From Candidatus Moraniibacteriota bacterium (GTDB lineage: Bacteria > Patescibacteriota > Minisyncoccia > Moranbacterales > UBA1568), in the NCBI GenBank assembly GCA_016699385.1, contig CP064974.1:806791-870790 (forward strand): a DNA stretch of 64,000 nucleotides. The letters are read 5' to 3'. The notes under the pieces are model-generated. The model did not search any database. It had not been told where the DNA came from and saw only the letters and a program-made list of their open reading frames with translations. This document shows positions 2,118 through 14,243 of the stretch, in pieces. The position numbers and the translations under genes are program-made. The stretch's first letter is position 1; each line of letters begins with the position of its first letter.

Positions 2118-2317
2118 TTCAAGTCCTTCAGCATATTAGTGTATCATAATACCGTAAAAAAGAGTAAAAGTCAATAAAGAAACTTGTGGATTCTCGTGAA
2201 TACGAGATATCTACCAAATTAGAGCTCCCCATTTTTTCCAAAAAAAGAATTCCCTATTCCTTGCCAATAAGCAATCCCTCCCGTATACTCCCAACGAAAT
2301 TTCACTCTTCCTTTTCT

Positions 2318-3429
2318 ATGAACGATGATATATTTCTCCACTGCCTCGGAAAAATCCCCGGAGTCGGCGCCGAAAAACTCCGCAAGATAGCCATCGCTTT
2401 CGACACATTTGAAACAGCATGGCATGCGCCACTCGAAGAATTTCTCAGTGCCGGAATTCCACACAAACTCGCAGAAACAATTGCAAAAGAGCGAAAGCAT
2501 CTTTCCCCAGAGAAAGAATCCGAGATACTCGAAAAACACTCTATCCGTCTCATCTCCAGAGAAAGCGATGATTATCCGACACTTCTCGCAGAAATCCCAA
2601 ACCCGCCACAACTTCTCTATCTTCGAGGGAATGCACTTCTCAATAGGCACCCGTTTCTCACCGTCGTTGGCACAAGGAAACCGACCGAATACGGAGCGGG
2701 CATTGCCAGAGAATTTGCGAGCGAACTTGCGAGAAGCGGCATAACCGTTGTCTCCGGCATGGCACTCGGCATCGACAAGGCAGCACATCAAGGCGCACTC
2801 GAAGGTAATGGCGAAACCATCGCCGTACTCGGCAACGGACTCGATGACGCTTCAATTGCGCCGCGGACCCACCTCGATTTGGCACACACCATCAGTCTTC
2901 ATGGCGCACTTCTCTCGGACTATCCACCAGGAACCAGCGCCTCCGAAGGAACCTTCCCCGCAAGGAATCGTATCATGGCCGGCATGTCCCTTGGCACAGT
3001 GGTTATTGAAGCATCGGAAAAAGTGGCACGCTGATTACTGCCAATCTTGCACTCGATTTCAATCGAGAAGTTTTTGCAGTGCCAGGTTCAATCTACTCCG
3101 AAAATTCCCGCGGTCCCCACGCGCTCATCAAAAAGGGCGCCATCCTCACCGCAAGTCTTGCTGACATTCTCGATGCGCTCCCCCTCTCGCGCGAACACGA
3201 AGAACACGGAACACTCTTTGAAACAACCTCTCTCCCGCAACCAAATCTTTCCGTCGACGAAGAACGCCTTCTCAAAATCTTAGGAAGTGATACCATGCAC
3301 ATTGACGCTATCGTAAAACACTCTACACTGGAGACATCGAATGCACTTTCTGCGCTCGCCTTTCTCGAAATGAAAGGTTTAGTAAAAAATATCGGCAACA
3401 TGCATTATATAAGAACGTATCGAGTATAA
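2318..3429 (+). pseudogene. dprA: DNA-processing protein DprA/Smf, interrupted by a -1 frameshift in an A5 run (3018-3022); pseudogene or sequencing error
   Basis: ORF 2186..3034 encodes the DprA Rossmann core (VVGTRKPTEYG...VVSGMALGIDKAAHQGAL) and stops at TGA 3032-3034. Reading from 3022 in the -1 frame continues without a stop as SGTLITANLALDFNREVFAVPGSIYSENSRG...LIKKGA (ORF 3079..3429), which is the canonical DprA continuation. An A6 rather than A5 run would restore a single ~370-aa protein. Start set at MNDDIFLHCLGKIPGVG (2318); the upstream in-frame ATG at 2186 is possible. Confidence 0.7.
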
Positions 3430-3463: not shown

Positions 3464-5638
3464 ATGAAACTTGTCATTGTTGAGTCGCCATCGAAGGCAA
3501 AAACTATTCAGAAGTATCTCGGGAAGGAATACAAGGTCGTCGCCTCCGTGGGACATATTCGCGATTTGCCAAAGAGCAACAAGAAAGCGATTGATATCAA
3601 AGAAGGATTTACACCTCACTACGAGGTGACGCCCGGAAAAGAAAATATCGTTTCAACCCTCACTCGCCTCACCAAGAAAGCGAGTGAGATTTACCTTGCA
3701 ACTGACCCCGACCGCGAAGGCGAAGCAATCGCCTGGCATATCGCCGAAGCATGCGGACTCAAGCGCCCGAAGCGTGTCGCCTTCCATGAAATCACACGAA
3801 ATGCCGTCACCGAGGGAATACAGCACCCGCGACTCATTGACCAAAATCTTCGTCGCGCCCAAGAAGCACGACGCGTCCTCGACCGCCTCGTCGGCTATGA
3901 TCTCTCAGGACTCATCTGGAAGAAACTCCGCTACGGACTCTCTGCCGGGCGAGTCCAATCACCCGCGCTTCGCATATTGGTCGAGAAGGAGCGAGAAATC
4001 GCCGCCTTTATCCCCGAAGATTTCTGGGTTATTACTGCGCATGCCGATTGCCCGGACAAGACACCAATTACACTCACCTGTTCCAAAGAACCGCGCGAAG
4101 AACAAGAAGTCGAAGACATCCTCAAAAAAGCGCGTGCCGGATCATGGTCTATTCTCGACGTCAAAGAATCCGAAGTGTCCCGTGCGCCATCCCCGCCCTT
4201 TACCACCTCGACGCTCCAGCAATCAGCAAGCTCCCGCCTCAGCTTCTCCCCCGCCAACACCATGCGCATCGCACAGAAACTCTACGAAGCGGGGCTCATC
4301 ACCTACATGCGCACCGATAGCTTCAATATGAGTGAAGAAGCAAGAAACGCGGCGACCACCTACATCATCAAAAAATTCGGCGAGAAATTTTCTGCACCGC
4401 ACATATACACTACTAAGAGCAAAAACGCCCAAGAGGCGCATGAGGCCATCCGCCCCACTGATCCGTCGCGCGAAAAAGCCGGCGCAAGCCCTGACCAGCA
4501 GAAACTCTACACACTCATATTCCGGCGAACAATTGCATCACAAATGGCAAACGCTCGCATGCTCCGCACCAAAATTGTTGCGAACATTGCCGACCGCTCC
4601 ATCCCTGATTTCACAGCCAATGGCTCACGGCTCCTTTTCCCAGGTTGGCTCGAGGTCGACCCCTTTGCAAAGCAAGACGACATGAATGTCCCAAAGCTCT
4701 CCCCCGGAAGTGCTCTTATTCTCAATAGCGTTGATTCCGAAAAGAAACAAACCGAGCCACCGCGCCGCTATTCCGAAGCCGGACTCGTCAAAGAACTCGA
4801 GAAGCGCGGTATCGGGAGACCGAGCACCTATGCTTCTATTATCAAAACGCTCCTCGACCGAAATTACGCCACCAAAGACGGTCGCGCGCTCCATGCCACC
4901 GAGACAGGCGAAGCGGTCAGCGCTTTCCTCGAAAAACATTTTGCCGAAATTGTGAGCGATACTTTCACAGCCGATATGGAACAAAAACTCGACGACATCT
5001 CAAACGGCGAGCGCGACTATGAGAAAACACTCAAGAATTTCTATACGCCCTTTTCCAAAGAAGTAAAATCGAAAGACAAAGTGGATAAAATTACCAATCT
5101 CGGCGACGCACCCAAAGACCTCCTCTGCCCCGAATGCAAAAGTGCCATGGTTTTGAAGCTCGGAAAAAACGGGACTTTCTACAGTTGTGCGCGCTTCCCA
5201 GATTGCAAAGGTGCTCGCATGAAAGATGGGTCACTCATCCCAGAAGACAAAGAGGTTGGCGAGCCCTGCCCCGAATGTGGCAATGCACTCGTCGAAAAAA
5301 TGGGGAAATTCGGTCCCTTTGTTGCCTGTAGTACCTATCCGAAATGCAAATTCATCAAAGGTTCCTCTGCACAAACAACCAGTATTGCCTGTCCCATTTG
5401 TAAAAAAGGCGAAATGGTCGAGAAGCGCGGACGCTTCGGCACATTCTATAGTTGCTCCAACTACCCCGATTGCAAACACGCTATCAAGGCGCGACCGACC
5501 GGCAAACATTGTTCATTCATCCGCGATGGCAAACCCTGCGGCGCCCTCATGATGGAAGGAACCAAAACCATCCCCGAACGCTGCTCCGACCGCACCTGCC
5601 CCAATCACAATCCACACCTTCTCGAAAAGAAAAAATAG
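3464..5638 (+). CDS. topA: DNA topoisomerase I (type IA) with C-terminal zinc-ribbon repeats
   Basis: N-terminus MKLVIVESPSKAKTIQKYLG...VGHIRDLP (TOPRIM). Catalytic-Tyr region TYMRTDS. Four C-terminal C4 zinc ribbons (CPECKS...C..C). The ORF opens at 3446 (MRFFVSMKLV), but the conserved start is ATG 3464. Confidence 0.95.
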   Translation: MKLVIVESPSKAKTIQKYLGKEYKVVASVGHIRDLPKSNKKAIDIKEGFTPHYEVTPGKENIVSTLTRLTKKASEIYLATDPDREGEAIAWHIAEACGLKRPKRVAFHEITRNAVTEGIQHPRLIDQNLRRAQEARRVLDRLVGYDLSGLIWKKLRYGLSAGRVQSPALRILVEKEREIAAFIPEDFWVITAHADCPDKTPITLTCSKEPREEQEVEDILKKARAGSWSILDVKESEVSRAPSPPFTTSTLQQSASSRLSFSPANTMRIAQKLYEAGLITYMRTDSFNMSEEARNAATTYIIKKFGEKFSAPHIYTTKSKNAQEAHEAIRPTDPSREKAGASPDQQKLYTLIFRRTIASQMANARMLRTKIVANIADRSIPDFTANGSRLLFPGWLEVDPFAKQDDMNVPKLSPGSALILNSVDSEKKQTEPPRRYSEAGLVKELEKRGIGRPSTYASIIKTLLDRNYATKDGRALHATETGEAVSAFLEKHFAEIVSDTFTADMEQKLDDISNGERDYEKTLKNFYTPFSKEVKSKDKVDKITNLGDAPKDLLCPECKSAMVLKLGKNGTFYSCARFPDCKGARMKDGSLIPEDKEVGEPCPECGNALVEKMGKFGPFVACSTYPKCKFIKGSSAQTTSIACPICKKGEMVEKRGRFGTFYSCSNYPDCKHAIKARPTGKHCSFIRDGKPCGALMMEGTKTIPERCSDRTCPNHNPHLLEKKK

Positions 5639-9245: not shown

Positions 9246-10928
<1,683 letters not shown>

Positions 10929-10955
10929 TTAGCACTCAAAGTATTCGACTGCTAA
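10929..10955 (-). promoter_or_regulatory. CIRCE element (HrcA operator) in the groEL leader
   Basis: TTAGCACTC-N9-GACTGCTAA matches the CIRCE consensus TTAGCACTC-N9-GAGTGCTAA with one mismatch. It lies immediately downstream of the -10 box. Confidence 0.8.
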
Positions 10956-10959
10956 ATGC

Positions 10960-10988
10960 ATTGTAAGAAAGCATCTCACTCCTGTCAA
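10960..10988 (-). promoter_or_regulatory. sigma70/sigmaA-type promoter of groEL (TTGACA-N17-TACAAT)
   Basis: On the minus strand, TTGACA (10988..10983), a 17-nt spacer, then TACAAT (10965..10960). CIRCE follows at the expected +1 position. Confidence 0.7.
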
Positions 10989-11067: not shown

Positions 11068-11301
11068 TCATTTGTCATATTTCCTCACGTCAACCTGTCC
11101 TGCAGGAGAACGGAGGCGCAAACTAATGAACGCATCCACTAACTCTTCTCGAGTTCTCACCAAACGCGACAAACCAGTCAAGTACGCCACAAGAAATACA
11201 GGAAATACGTACACACCAGCAGCAATGAGTCGGGAAATAACCTCGAGAGAATCCGTTGGTAAATTCAAATTCCGCACATCAGCATTTTTGTTCAAACTCA
11301 T
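11068..11301 (-). CDS. small hypothetical membrane protein
   Basis: 77-aa ORF with one hydrophobic helix (LIAAGVYVFPVFLVAYLTGL). No recognisable family. It sits where groES would normally be expected but is not GroES-like. Confidence 0.3.
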   Translation of the reverse strand: MSLNKNADVRNLNLPTDSLEVISRLIAAGVYVFPVFLVAYLTGLSRLVRTREELVDAFISLRLRSPAGQVDVRKYDK

Positions 11302-11338
11302 GTACCCTCCGACTTTTCCAAAATAACCGAAAAGAACT

Positions 11339-11521
11339 CTACACCCGAAACACCATTACGTCTCCATCTTGGACGATATATTCTTTTCCTTCAAGACGCA
11401 AGGTTTCTGCGTCACGCGCGGCGCTCCAGGATCCGGCAGTAAGGAGCGCCTCCCAATTGATGACTTCGGCGCGAATGAAAAACTCATCTTCGCATCTCAC
11501 GGAATCCTGCTCCCATTTCAA
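11339..11521 (-). pseudogene. orphan 3'-terminal fragment (~50 codons, TGS-domain end) of a ychF copy
   Basis: Encodes ...[46 protein letters not shown], near-identical to the last 48 residues of intact YchF at 12651..13700 ([46 protein letters not shown]). About 85% nucleotide identity. There is no upstream P-loop domain. Confidence 0.7.
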
Positions 11522-11794
11522 CCCTCTCCATCAACCGCCATGCATTCCCATATTTCAAAAGCCCGAGATACGACTGGACGACTTCCTTTTGATTTCCTTT
11601 CGCTTCGATAATCGAAACTATCCGGATTTGACTTCATTGATAGAAAAAGTCATGAAGATGAAGTGAGGATCTAGACAAGTCCCAAATGAAAAACCCCGCA
11701 CCTTACTCAATTACATCGCGGTAGGGTACGGGGTTAAAGAACAAAGGTACAAAGATCAAAAACTCAAAAAGTGCAAATGACCAATGCCCAAGCG

Positions 11795-12418
11795 CTAACT
11801 TGCGGAGAGACCGGCAGGCTCGCCGTCGTCCCAGTCCCTGTCAAGGTTGTACCAACTCACATACGGACGGTCGACATGGCAAGCGAGATACGGGACGACA
11901 CGATTGCCATACTCGTCCAGTACGACCGATTTCCATGCATACACCCAATTCCCCTTCCATTCGAGAGGAATACGATGCTTATTTTTCTCGTAATACTGGA
12001 TATCCGCCAAGCTGATACCGTGATTGATTGGATCATGCCACTGCGCTTGGTACATCTCTTGATCTGGCAACAGAAAAGCAAAAATTTCAGCGCCGGTAAT
12101 AGTCTTCCGTTTTTTCTGTTTCTCGTGCAATCCAAGTCCGGGATTCCTCACCCCACTTGAACTTTTTGCTTCGAGTCCCGGTGTGAGATGCTTCACTACC
12201 CAATCTGGATACGTCGGATAGACCTCCGATGTTTCCAGTGGCGATTCACAGAGATTGGTTACCATTTCCTTGAGATACCGCTCGCCCTCGGAAGTTCCGA
12301 GAACATGCAGCCTCTCCTCGGAGACACCCATCTCTTCCGCTAACCGGACAATTTCAGCAACCATATGCATCACAAGACGCATACCTGAAACCAGCTGTGA
12401 CTTTTTGCTCATTTTCAA
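11795..12418 (-). CDS. hypothetical protein (no recognisable domain), bracketed by ychF and its duplicated 3' fragment
   Basis: 207-aa ORF with reasonable codon usage and no overlap with other genes. Trp/Tyr-rich C-terminal half and no TM segments. Confidence 0.55.
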   Translation of the reverse strand: MKMSKKSQLVSGMRLVMHMVAEIVRLAEEMGVSEERLHVLGTSEGERYLKEMVTNLCESPLETSEVYPTYPDWVVKHLTPGLEAKSSSGVRNPGLGLHEKQKKRKTITGAEIFAFLLPDQEMYQAQWHDPINHGISLADIQYYEKNKHRIPLEWKGNWVYAWKSVVLDEYGNRVVPYLACHVDRPYVSWYNLDRDWDDGEPAGLSAS

Positions 12419-12650
12419 CCCCTCCGAGATACGCTTCTCATGGGGTCATTTCACAACAACCCCATCCCAAACGCATCTCAATCGTGCTTGCCAGTGGACT
12501 TCCTGACGTATTCAGGATTGTCATAGCGCGGAAACACCAAGGTGTCCCCCTCGAACTTAGAAACTCCGCGCTACGATAAACCCTCTCCCGAGTCATTTTT
12601 TCAAAGAACTGACCACGAACAGTACACCATCTCTCATATCTTGTCAAGCC

Positions 12651-13700
12651 TCACACCTTGAAAACCATCACATCGCCGTCTTGGACAATATACTCCTTTC
12701 CCTCGAGACGCAAGGTACCCGCTTCGCGTGCGGCGCTCCAGGATCCGGCAGTGAGGAGTGTCTCCCAGCCAATCACTTCGGCGCGGATAAAACGGTCTTT
12801 GAAATCCGTGTGAATCGCTGCGCCTGCGAGAGGCGCCGTCGAACCCTGAGCAACCGTCCACCCGCGCGTCTCCGTCTCGCCTGTTGTAAAAAATGTCATC
12901 AGTCCGAGAAGCGAATATGTCTCACGGATAAGCTCGCCAATCTTTGACGAAAGCCCGAGCTCTGCCTGTTCGTCCGCACTCATAGAAAAGAGTTCTTCTT
13001 CTATCTTCACGTCAAGTCGCACATGCGGACGCGCCGCAAGCTCCGGCGGAAGCGCTGCTTCCGGATCAGACATGTTATAAACAAAAAGAAACGGTTTCGC
13101 CGTAAGGAGTTGCAATTCGCGAAACACCCGCCTCGAATCTTCACTCTCAGCGACGCCCGCATCACGCGCGAGTTTCCCCGACTGAAGAGCTGCTTCAATC
13201 TGCTCAAGCATCGGCATCTCGGCAAGCGCCTCCTTCTTCCCTGCACGAGCATCTTTCACTGTCTTGAGTTTCCGTTTCTCAATCGTTTCCAAGTCCGCCA
13301 AGATAAGCTCCGTATGAATGATGTCGATATCCTCCAATGGTGCGACGCGATCGTGCACATGAATAATATCGGGGTTTTCAAAAAGCCGAACCACTTCGAT
13401 AATCGCATCCGCTTCGCGAATATTCGCAAGAAATTTATTGCCAAGTCCTTCCCCCTTCGACGCGCCCGCAACGAGCCCTGCAATATCGACAAATTCCACT
13501 ACTGGCGGAATCGTCTTCGCTGACTTCGACAGTGCCGAGAGTTTGCCAAGTCGCGCGTCCGGCACCGGCACAATTCCCACATTGGGCTCGATGGTACAAA
13601 AAGGGTAGTTGTTGATATCGACTGCTTTCCCAGAAAGCGCCTTAAACAACGTAGACTTCCCCACATTTGGCAACCCAACAATACCAGCTTTGAGAGACAT
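12651..13700 (-). CDS. ychF: ribosome-binding ATPase YchF (Obg-family P-loop NTPase with C-terminal TGS domain)
   Basis: MSLKAGIVGLPNVGKSTLFKALS (G1), NYPFCTIEPNVG (G2), DIAGLVAGASKGEGLGN (G3), and the TGS C-terminus. The ORF opens at 13742, but the conserved start is ATG 13700. Confidence 0.95.
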   Translation of the reverse strand: MSLKAGIVGLPNVGKSTLFKALSGKAVDINNYPFCTIEPNVGIVPVPDARLGKLSALSKSAKTIPPVVEFVDIAGLVAGASKGEGLGNKFLANIREADAIIEVVRLFENPDIIHVHDRVAPLEDIDIIHTELILADLETIEKRKLKTVKDARAGKKEALAEMPMLEQIEAALQSGKLARDAGVAESEDSRRVFRELQLLTAKPFLFVYNMSDPEAALPPELAARPHVRLDVKIEEELFSMSADEQAELGLSSKIGELIRETYSLLGLMTFFTTGETETRGWTVAQGSTAPLAGAAIHTDFKDRFIRAEVIGWETLLTAGSWSAAREAGTLRLEGKEYIVQDGDVMVFKV

Positions 13701-13775
13701 AGGCGTAGCGACAAATATCAAACGAAAGAAAAGGGATTCCACTCGCTAAATGCTAGCGGAATCCCAAAAAAATGT

Positions 13776-14243
13776 CTACAAAACTCGCTGAATCTTGATG
13801 CCATATACACCTCCAATGAACTGGGGCGACAGATAACCAAAATCGAGCATCACTTGAATCAGACCGGGAAATATCGGAACCTTTTTTCTTTTACATCGGA
13901 GAAGATTCCCTGGCGTCGCCCATTGGTATTCGCTATGCTCCGCCGGATTCAAGACAACATTCGGCAGAGTCGGCAGAGCAATTTCATAGGAAGCATATTC
14001 CCACAAACCATCAACGCCATAATCAAGGCGATGCGATCCAAGCGGGTGCAATATATTCAAATTCACCACTATACCAGTTTCCTCCCGAAGCTCTCGCCGT
14101 GCTGCTTCCTGGATACTTTCATCTGCGTCTACCTTTCCCCCAGGGAGACCCCAGTATCCACCTGCTACTCTCAAAAGAACAAGGATATCATCTTCATACC
14201 ACACGAACACGCCTACAGCTTTTCTATATACGCCGTCGTGCAT
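13776..14243 (-). CDS. NUDIX hydrolase
   Basis: Nudix box GLPGGKVDADESIQEAARRELREETGI. Confidence 0.85.
   Translation of the reverse strand: MHDGVYRKAVGVFVWYEDDILVLLRVAGGYWGLPGGKVDADESIQEAARRELREETGIVVNLNILHPLGSHRLDYGVDGLWEYASYEIALPTLPNVVLNPAEHSEYQWATPGNLLRCKRKKVPIFPGLIQVMLDFGYLSPQFIGGVYGIKIQRVL

Follow-up and report, generated by a model that had tools for sequence, protein, structure and literature searches.

A decayed diversity-generating retroelement between two copies of the ychF 3' end in a Candidatus Moraniibacteriota genome

In the 64,000-nucleotide stretch of a Candidatus Moraniibacteriota bacterium genome analyzed here (GenBank assembly GCA_016699385.1, contig CP064974.1, positions 806,791 to 870,790; hereafter, the window), the last codons of ychF occur twice, once at the end of the intact gene and once as a displaced fragment, with a gene for a hypothetical protein between them. 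Judged from its sequence, the segment between the two ends holds the remnant of a diversity-generating retroelement (DGR), consisting of a leader, a target gene whose variable repeat (VR) has lost its template, a downstream hairpin, and a stub of the reverse transcriptase (RT) gene (Table 1). The best explanation of the locus, and one that we consider likely, is that a DGR of the type found in bacteria of the candidate phyla radiation (CPR) displaced the native ychF end, and that both its founding at this site and its spread proceeded without an integrase. The element is of a known kind and in ordinary decay, with an unusually legible insertion scar.

Table 1. Features between ychF and groEL in the window (positions are those of the window; ORF, open reading frame; TR, template repeat)
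Feature	Position	Strand	Remarks
Intact ychF, 349 aa	12651..13700	-	P-loop GTPase and YchF C-terminal domain
Repeat copy A, 3' end attached to ychF	12653..12792	-	Direct repeat; cassette sequence directly after
Cassette leader	12419..12650	-	Conserved TTGACA motif just past the ychF stop, then structured 5' leader of the target
Leader RNA core	12484..12588	-	Two-part long hairpin and second hairpin; covariance model R1, 99.6 bits
DGR target gene (ORF207)	11795..12412	-	205 aa from conserved MSKKS start
VR	11800..11925	-	No template left; 85% alignment to L001 TR (4458-4583)
GC-rich hairpin and U-run	11685..11735	-	11-bp stem AACCCCGUACC/GGUGCGGGGUU, then UUUUUCAUUU
Unmatched 59 nt	11625..11683	-	No match in relatives; at the deletion of TR, Avd, and RT codons 1-291
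RT stub	11484..11624	-	Last 46 codons and stop; tblastn with L001 RT
Repeat copy B, displaced ychF 3' fragment	11339..11482	-	47 codons and stop; within ORF 11339..11521
77-aa ORF	11068..11301	-	Between the fragment and the groEL promoter
groEL	9246..10904	-	Ancestral downstream neighbor of ychF; ychF-groEL adjacency in many Moraniibacteriota

The identification of the segment comes from related loci, designated here by L numbers, in which the cassette is complete. In L001, and likewise in L003, L004, L091, and L104, the genes run in the order Nudix, Nudix, ychF, a 205-aa orthologue of the window's target, a short apparent ORF, an inverted Avd gene, a 337-aa RT, the ychF 3' fragment, and an unrelated 142-aa ORF. 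The short apparent ORF of L001 is a template repeat (TR; positions 4458-4583) that copies the last 126 nt of the target (3971-4096). All 19 mismatches between TR and VR in this cassette fall on TR adenines, and the TR translation is rich in asparagine (NENGN...NCNGD...NWYNLDNYWNDN). The Avd proteins of L001 and L105 match Pfam bAvd (4.6e-11) and NCBIfam DivGenRetAVD (7e-17, a score under that model's curated cut-off), and the RT is complete in both (RVT_1, 5e-21), with the LGNLTSQ and YADD motifs present. An [I/L]GxxxSQ motif is the mark of DGR RTs. The L001 cassette is a canonical DGR.

The complete cassette is approximately 2.75 kb long and lies inside ychF at codon 303. It comprises a replacement ychF 3' end, the structured leader, the target with its C-terminal VR, the TR, the inverted Avd gene, and the RT gene; in L001 it takes up all of the DNA between the ychF stop and the RT stop and includes no recombinase. 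An insert of this family between two ychF ends is known from at least five lineages, and the DGR cassette is an established family at the ychF site, not private to the window genome.

Among previously described DGRs, subtype B3 of architecture B makes up 90% of those from CPR bacteria (Wu et al. 2018, PMC5758913), and a CPR-restricted DGR clade 2 has been described (Roux et al. 2021, PMC8144416). The cassettes of the relatives agree with architecture B in gene order (target, TR, inverted Avd, RT). They further resemble CPR-type DGRs in an RT with RVT_1 and LGNLTSQ, in the Avd, in a 126-nt TR/VR pair with adenine-only mismatches, and in a VR that sits at the C terminus of a small target, has an identical GC-rich 3' stretch like an initiation of mutagenic homing site, and is followed by a hairpin. 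Of these parts, the window has the target, VR, hairpin, and RT tail, as judged by orthology. The system stands apart in several respects: the cassette lies within the 3' end of a housekeeping gene, with a duplicate of this end bracketing it; no Pfam or NCBIfam model covers the target family, which is preceded by a conserved, structured leader; and the window copy is without TR, Avd, and RT catalytic domain.

How the window copy lost these parts is evident from its alignment with L001. Starting with the Nudix genes, the two loci are colinear as far as a point 105 nt beyond the target stop (L001 4206 = window 11684), and colinearity resumes at L001 5852 (= window 11624) and runs to the end of the fragment. 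Positions 4207-5851 of L001, containing TR, Avd, and RT residues 1-291, are deleted in the window, and the 59 unmatched bases stand in their place. The RT stub is 72% identical to residues 292-337 of the L001 RT (E = 1e-17 by tblastn). No other RT, Avd, or TR-like sequence was found in the 64-kb window by tblastn or repeat search, so that of the features that define a DGR, neither a catalytic RT, nor a TR/VR pair, nor an Avd is present. Because TR, Avd, and the RT catalytic domain are gone, the window copy is unable to diversify by itself.

The target gene itself is intact. It had been listed as a domain-less orphan of 207 codons (ORF207, 11795..12418); the likely start is the ATG at 12412. 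The lack of a domain holds, as ORF207 has no Pfam or NCBIfam match, but the first-pass annotation had missed both the RT stub and the fact that the gene encodes a DGR variable protein. The product is 61-75% identical to the targets of complete cassettes, with a dN/dS outside the VR of 0.2-0.3 in comparison with L001 and L009. Across lineages the VR shows a dS of 0.11-0.13 and a dN/dS of 1.4-2.0, and this combination of low dS and high dN/dS fits a conserved template that overwrites the VR with adenine-directed changes. The window gene is thus orthologous to a demonstrated DGR target, carries its VR in the same place, and bears the evolutionary signature of a VR, the features by which a DGR remnant is recognized. 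In L093, a second sample of the same species, the VR differs from that of the window at one position, a third codon position, and the called product is 100% identical to ORF207. The hairpin downstream of the target is conserved in L001, L009, and L092 and may be a terminator or a DGR inverted repeat.

Decay of this kind is not confined to the window. The cassette of L009 (6007-7611) has lost TR, Avd, and RT residues 1-86, with residues 87-337 left; L107 (372-1192) retains only RT residues 277-327; and in L092 (6001-6776) the target is truncated, the RT is reduced to a few bases, and the fragment to 82 nt. The deletions in L009, L107, and L092 are independent; the mutagenic machinery has thus been lost repeatedly while the target was retained. 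Cassettes have also changed by exchange of parts. L105 and L106 (L105:257-2966) carry a second target family that has in common with the first the initial ~60 residues, the leader, the RT (85% identical), and both ychF junctions, while the C-terminal variable domain, the TR, and the Avd (37% identical) differ; this pairing of shared with different parts indicates modular exchange inside the cassette. Separately, a more distant genome (L090:8058-10895) has a different DGR directly after ychF, in the opposite orientation, whose RT is 50% identical and split into two ORFs and whose element ends within the ychF stop region.

We now turn to the two ychF ends. Read on the minus strand, the window runs from ychF through a 232-nt spacer, the 205/207-aa ORF, approximately 270 nt, a 60-codon ORF, and the 77-aa ORF to groEL. 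The intact ychF product matches Pfam MMR_HSR1 (6e-20) and YchF-GTPase_C (6e-32); its start was set from homologues at MSLKAG (13700), whereas the program-made ORF list extends to 13742. The two ends form an ungapped 140-nt direct repeat (11341-11480 and 12653-12792) with a spacing of 1,312 nt, the only long repeat of its kind within the 64 kb. The copies are 79% identical (29 mismatches in 138 nt), lower than the ~85% first reported, and 23 of the 29 mismatches are at third codon positions and 23 are transitions. ORF 11339..11521 has 60 codons, the last 47 of which repeat the YchF end and match positions 37-83 of the 84-position YchF-GTPase_C profile (E = 1.7e-14). As a YchF/OLA1 GTPase, this ORF has part of the C-terminal domain alone, with the P-loop part absent upstream; the earlier description of a displaced ychF 3' end lacking a P-loop was correct. 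The fragment begins 1 base past the RT stop, in a reading frame different from that of the RT. The right junction, GAGATGAG TTT/TTCATYCGCGC, is identical in the window, L001, L009, and L105.

An assembly error had been raised as a possible source of this layout. L093 (ERZ27239171) comes from another sample and an independent assembly, and it is 99.67% identical to the window over 14190..11431, a stretch that takes in ychF, ORF207, the RT stub, and 50 nt at the start of the fragment. Because the independent assembly agrees, the junctions it covers are no assembly artefact. The intervening DNA had also been called foreign-looking; its GC content of 0.44-0.51 resembles that of the neighborhood, with no GC or skew anomaly.

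Which end is native was assessed by comparison with relatives that lack the segment, as the first-pass annotation had suggested. In the closest five Moraniibacteriota genomes (L011-L015; YchF 80-94% identical, against 60-72% for the remaining hits), ychF is followed directly by groEL, with neither cassette nor fragment, and the same order, at a distance of 70-700 nt, is found in many Moraniibacteriota genomes. After the attached ychF stop, a single cassette sequence (GGCTTGACAAAATATGAGAG...) follows in the window, L001, L009, L092, and L105. The flank after the fragment varies by lineage, and each version matches the DNA following the intact ychF of a cassette-free genome. The fragment of L001 and its flank are colinear with the ychF end and flank of L011 over 728 nt, including the 142-aa ORF; the corresponding flank of L009 matches L014 (groEL promoter and CIRCE element), and that of L092 matches L013. 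Sequence identities point the same way. Relative to the L011 ychF end, the L001 fragment has 15 differences in 138 positions and the L001 attached end 34 (Fisher p = 0.004), and the divergence between the L001 fragment and L011 equals that of the rest of the gene (89% identity). Relative to the L012 ychF end, the L009 fragment is 88-90% identical and the L009 attached end 80%. Between L001 and L009, identity is 91% in the attached ends, compared to 84% in the 5' parts of these genes (p = 0.007).

Given that flanks and identities agree, the native ychF end of these relatives is the fragment, displaced from its gene, and the attached end is part of the cassette. The earlier proposal, in which an insertion at the 3' end of ychF supplied a new end and survives as a remnant, is supported by the colinearity of L001 with L011, by the unequal divergence of the two L001 ends, and by the empty sites. 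For the window we infer that the fragment is likewise the native copy, on the basis of shared junctions and flanks rather than sequence identity, and that copy A arrived with the cassette. A mosaic within the 140-nt fragment, donor-like at its 5' side and host-like at its 3' side, was considered and rejected, the trend across the thirds of the L001 fragment (85, 89, and 93%) being too weak. Many of the closest metagenome-assembled genomes are labelled "uncultured Bdellovibrionales bacterium"; their ychF-groEL loci group with Candidatus Moraniibacteriota, and the labels are probably wrong.

These comparisons bear on two other accounts of the repeat. If the ychF 3' region had been duplicated locally in tandem and had then decayed, ORF207 being a separate acquisition, two copies would lie in direct orientation 1.3 kb apart, as observed. 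The first-pass annotation had offered such a decayed duplication as its alternative, but we regard it as very improbable, since what follows the fragment is the DNA natively found downstream of ychF in cassette-free relatives, and what follows the attached end is cassette. In addition, the differences between the copies are mostly synonymous (23 of 29 at third positions), the fragment retains a full reading frame, and L001 and L009 resemble each other more in their attached ends than in the host parts of the gene. It could also be supposed that the two ychF ends are themselves a TR/VR pair and that ychF is being diversified, given the DGR RT beside the repeat in relatives and a length (140 nt) and identity (~80%) within the TR/VR range. 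There is next to no chance of this: of the 29 mismatches, only 10 have A in the fragment and only 6 have A in the attached copy, the third-position changes preserve the protein, and the true TR/VR pair of the cassette lies elsewhere, with adenine mismatches at 19 of 19 positions.

A stronger competitor is a classical integrative element with its own integrase, whose phage-type attachment site (attP) carried a ychF-like end and which has since been stripped down to its DGR module and att repeats. In its favor are the direct repeats on both sides of the insert, junctions shared without change by at least four lineages, sporadic presence of the cassette among close relatives, and the 140-nt repeat together with the empty sites in L011-L015, the pairing of repeat and empty site by which such elements are recognized. 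DGRs are, moreover, often located on phages and islands (PMC5758913). Islands and prophages in gene 3' ends, whether of tRNA, tmRNA, or protein-coding genes, leave the same layout of an intact gene, an insert, and a displaced partial 3' copy in direct orientation, and they too are sporadic among relatives, with empty sites. They differ, however, in that no copy of the cassette has an integrase or excisionase and in that the insert, at ~2.75 kb, is a DGR only. No integrase or recombinase was found in the cassettes of L001, L009, L105, or the window, nor within ~10 kb on either side in the window, where the ten large ORFs are housekeeping genes, and the same is true of the intact and evidently active L001 cassette. 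Nor does any tRNA or known RNA gene lie near the site as an integration target. A second cargo at the same site in another genome (L035, described below) has a duplication of ~60-70 nt, which argues against a single att core, and no relatives of the target were found among phages, plasmids, or IMG/VR sequences. We therefore consider a classical integrative element unlikely, and give an integrase that acted in trans or was lost a similarly low probability; the earlier suggestion of an element that had lost its integrase is not supported, as complete cassettes, too, are without one.

We favor instead an integrase-free origin. In the proposed sequence of events, a single illegitimate or one-sided homologous recombination event would have placed the cassette at the ychF end, so that ychF came to end in the cassette-borne copy and its native last 47 codons were stranded directly after the RT stop. 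In the intact state, the RT copies TR RNA with errors at adenines, and the resulting cDNA overwrites the VR and thereby diversifies a small, probably C-type-lectin-like binding domain. The deletion in the window genome removed TR, Avd, and RT residues 1-291, and because it took these parts, the VR would be frozen and the target kept as an ordinary gene. A single founding joint is indicated by the right junction, which is identical in four lineages even though one of them (L105/L106) has a different variable domain, TR, and Avd.

Spread of the cassette would have followed from homologous recombination through ychF on one side and the fragment or groEL on the other, by which the cassette was moved or replaced among lineages. 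The backbones of L092, which has a decayed cassette, and L012, which has none, are 95-99% identical, and the two differ across the interval from ychF codon ~303 to the groEL promoter, a pattern that fits replacement by homologous recombination in the flanking genes. Homology-facilitated illegitimate recombination and the exchange of islands via flanking core genes have been described for naturally transformable bacteria. One ychF anchor and one illegitimate joint would give the partial duplication of ychF, and exchange through flanking homology would explain identical junctions alongside lineage-specific native flanks; unlike in those described cases, no donor, intermediate, or microhomology is demonstrable here, and the route is putative for these organisms. 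A dprA gene lies in the window at 2186..3034, which is compatible with DNA uptake and recombination as the exchange route, and a distant target homologue (L103) also adjoins a dprA gene. It is conceivable, though rather doubtful, that the cassette is a self-contained, integrase-free mobile module whose ychF-derived arms, together with ychF and groEL, provide portable homology for entry, exit, and swapping among Moraniibacteriota genomes by ordinary homologous recombination, and whose leader RNA may control the target.

Several observations weigh against the account that we favor. Neither a donor nor an intermediate was seen for the recombination route, to which we were led by inference. TR, Avd, and a catalytic RT are absent from the window, where assignment to a DGR rests on orthology with the relatives. 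A second DGR elsewhere in the genome may act on the VR in trans, our view covering 64 kb. In the window, identity does not discriminate between the two ychF ends, as the fragment has 20 differences from the L012 end and the attached end 17; the affinity of the window's ychF shifts near position 900, being L011-like before and L012-like after. Finally, between lineages the fragment has a dN/dS of ~0.10 at a dS of ~1, as selection would also give.

This last point, together with an intact reading frame in the window, L001, L009, and L105, a start 1 base past the RT stop in every lineage, and the annotation of the L009 copy by a gene caller as a 53-aa YchF_C protein, would suit a fragment kept for a function, whether as a small YchF C-terminal (TGS-like) peptide, as an extension of the RT, or as a DNA or RNA signal such as a homology arm for entry of the cassette into ychF or its exit. 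We think this improbable. The fragment is out of frame with the RT, its in-frame starts are TTG or GTG only and lack a properly spaced ribosome-binding site, and the L092 copy is missing its first ~60 nt. Four of the five fragments have substitutions at positions that are invariant or near-invariant among 83 distinct intact YchF C termini (window, G26E; L105, W10G; L092, F45S; L009, R23S and E24R), the position of the window's G26E being Gly in all 83; the private residues of intact YchF proteins are at variable positions. Each fragment resembles a different host-type ychF end, and since separate captures from working ychF genes, which these lineage-specific affinities support, would carry a low dN/dS with them, selection on the fragment is not needed to explain it. 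The fragment appears to be a young relic without function.

The ychF-groEL spacer is a general hotspot with diverse cargo. By reading of the sequences, we identified in another Moraniibacteriota genome (L035:8045-8784) a nucleotidyltransferase/HEPN (MNT/HepT-like) pair directly after ychF, with a 19-23-codon duplicate of the ychF 3' end (~60-70 nt) located 3 nt past the HEPN stop, that is, the same scar with other cargo and another length. Islands with JAB-like and ThiF/E1-like genes lie upstream of ychF in L013 and L009 (L009:546-4547), and the one in L013 holds two duplicates of the first 17-28 ychF codons (2133-2183 and 3976-4059), which indicates that cargo on the 5' side also leaves duplicates of the ychF gene end.

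The leader between ychF and the target is 89-92% identical to those of L001, L009, and L105, compared to ~80% for the flanking coding DNA. Its transcribed strand has a minimum free energy of -86.5 kcal/mol (z = -4.67 relative to shuffled sequence). The core of the leader recurs upstream of distant target homologues that are not beside ychF (L103, L107, L010), and in the alignment compensatory changes occur at 7 of 25 pairs, with pairing in 94.9% of cells, compared to 33-45% when the partners are slid. The window's match to model R1 arises by construction, because the window is among the seven sequences from which R1 was built. Rfam gave no match at the gathering threshold in the window and none at E <= 1 in 11300..12700, and the covariance model, applied to related loci totaling 1.2 Mb, yielded only the known instances. 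The case is built on seven sequences, four from close relatives, and is suggestive only; we regard the core as a candidate new cis-regulatory RNA.

The target protein belongs to an unannotated family. ORF207 has 17 homologues in public data, and its residues ~60-205 belong to a family of 298 clusters (E <= 1e-3 among 1.84 billion representatives), with no Pfam domain in any of 68 sampled members and no match in the PDB by sequence profiles. A second profile search for a deeper alignment added few new proteins, long multi-domain proteins having filled its candidate list. A helical module of its own is formed by the N-terminal 60 residues, the part held in common with the second target family. 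An AlphaFold model of full-length ORF207 was too poor to use (predicted local distance difference test score, 54); the domain-only model was good, and Foldseek gave no match for it. The target differs from variable proteins with a C-type-lectin fold, such as Mtd of Bordetella phage and TvpA of Treponema, in showing no sequence similarity to them (scores below usual significance) and in having a smaller domain (~145 aa) placed after the 60-aa helical module. A phage or plasmid context, toward which the first-pass annotation had pointed, found no support, as ORF207 had no match among INPHARED phages, PLSDB plasmids, or IMG/VR. Relatives of the RT (up to 61% identity) do occur in IMG/VR contigs with the same Avd/RT layout, without ychF or an ORF207-type target.

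Downstream of the fragment, the 77-aa ORF has no Pfam or NCBIfam match and no homologue in any relative locus examined, and it probably lies outside the cassette. Upstream of groEL, at 10931..10988, we noted a TTGACA-17-TACAAT promoter-like site and a CIRCE-like inverted repeat (TTAGCACTC-N9-GACTGCTAA); no groES-sized ORF is present there, the sole ORF being the unrelated 77-aa one. Elsewhere in the window, ORF 16987..17616 matches the LytB/IspH profile in its C-terminal half only (positions 117-265 of 267), and it may be a truncated or frameshifted gene or have a mis-set start.

These findings leave the knowledge of how DGRs work unchanged, and their interest is moderate, lying in the mode of insertion, in diversifying machinery that is lost again and again while the target stays, and in the leader RNA. 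What had been a gene-end duplicate without explanation and a hypothetical protein is now a defined object, a decayed DGR with a retained target, and the unannotated variable-domain family of 298 clusters and the leader RNA together provide a concrete annotation lead. At this locus, the way in which a chromosomal DGR of a CPR bacterium came to its site can be followed at the level of single bases, which is rare. The series from complete cassette to stub (L001, L009, the window, L107, and L092), in which the machinery was repeatedly lost and the target kept, bears on how long diversification serves the host.

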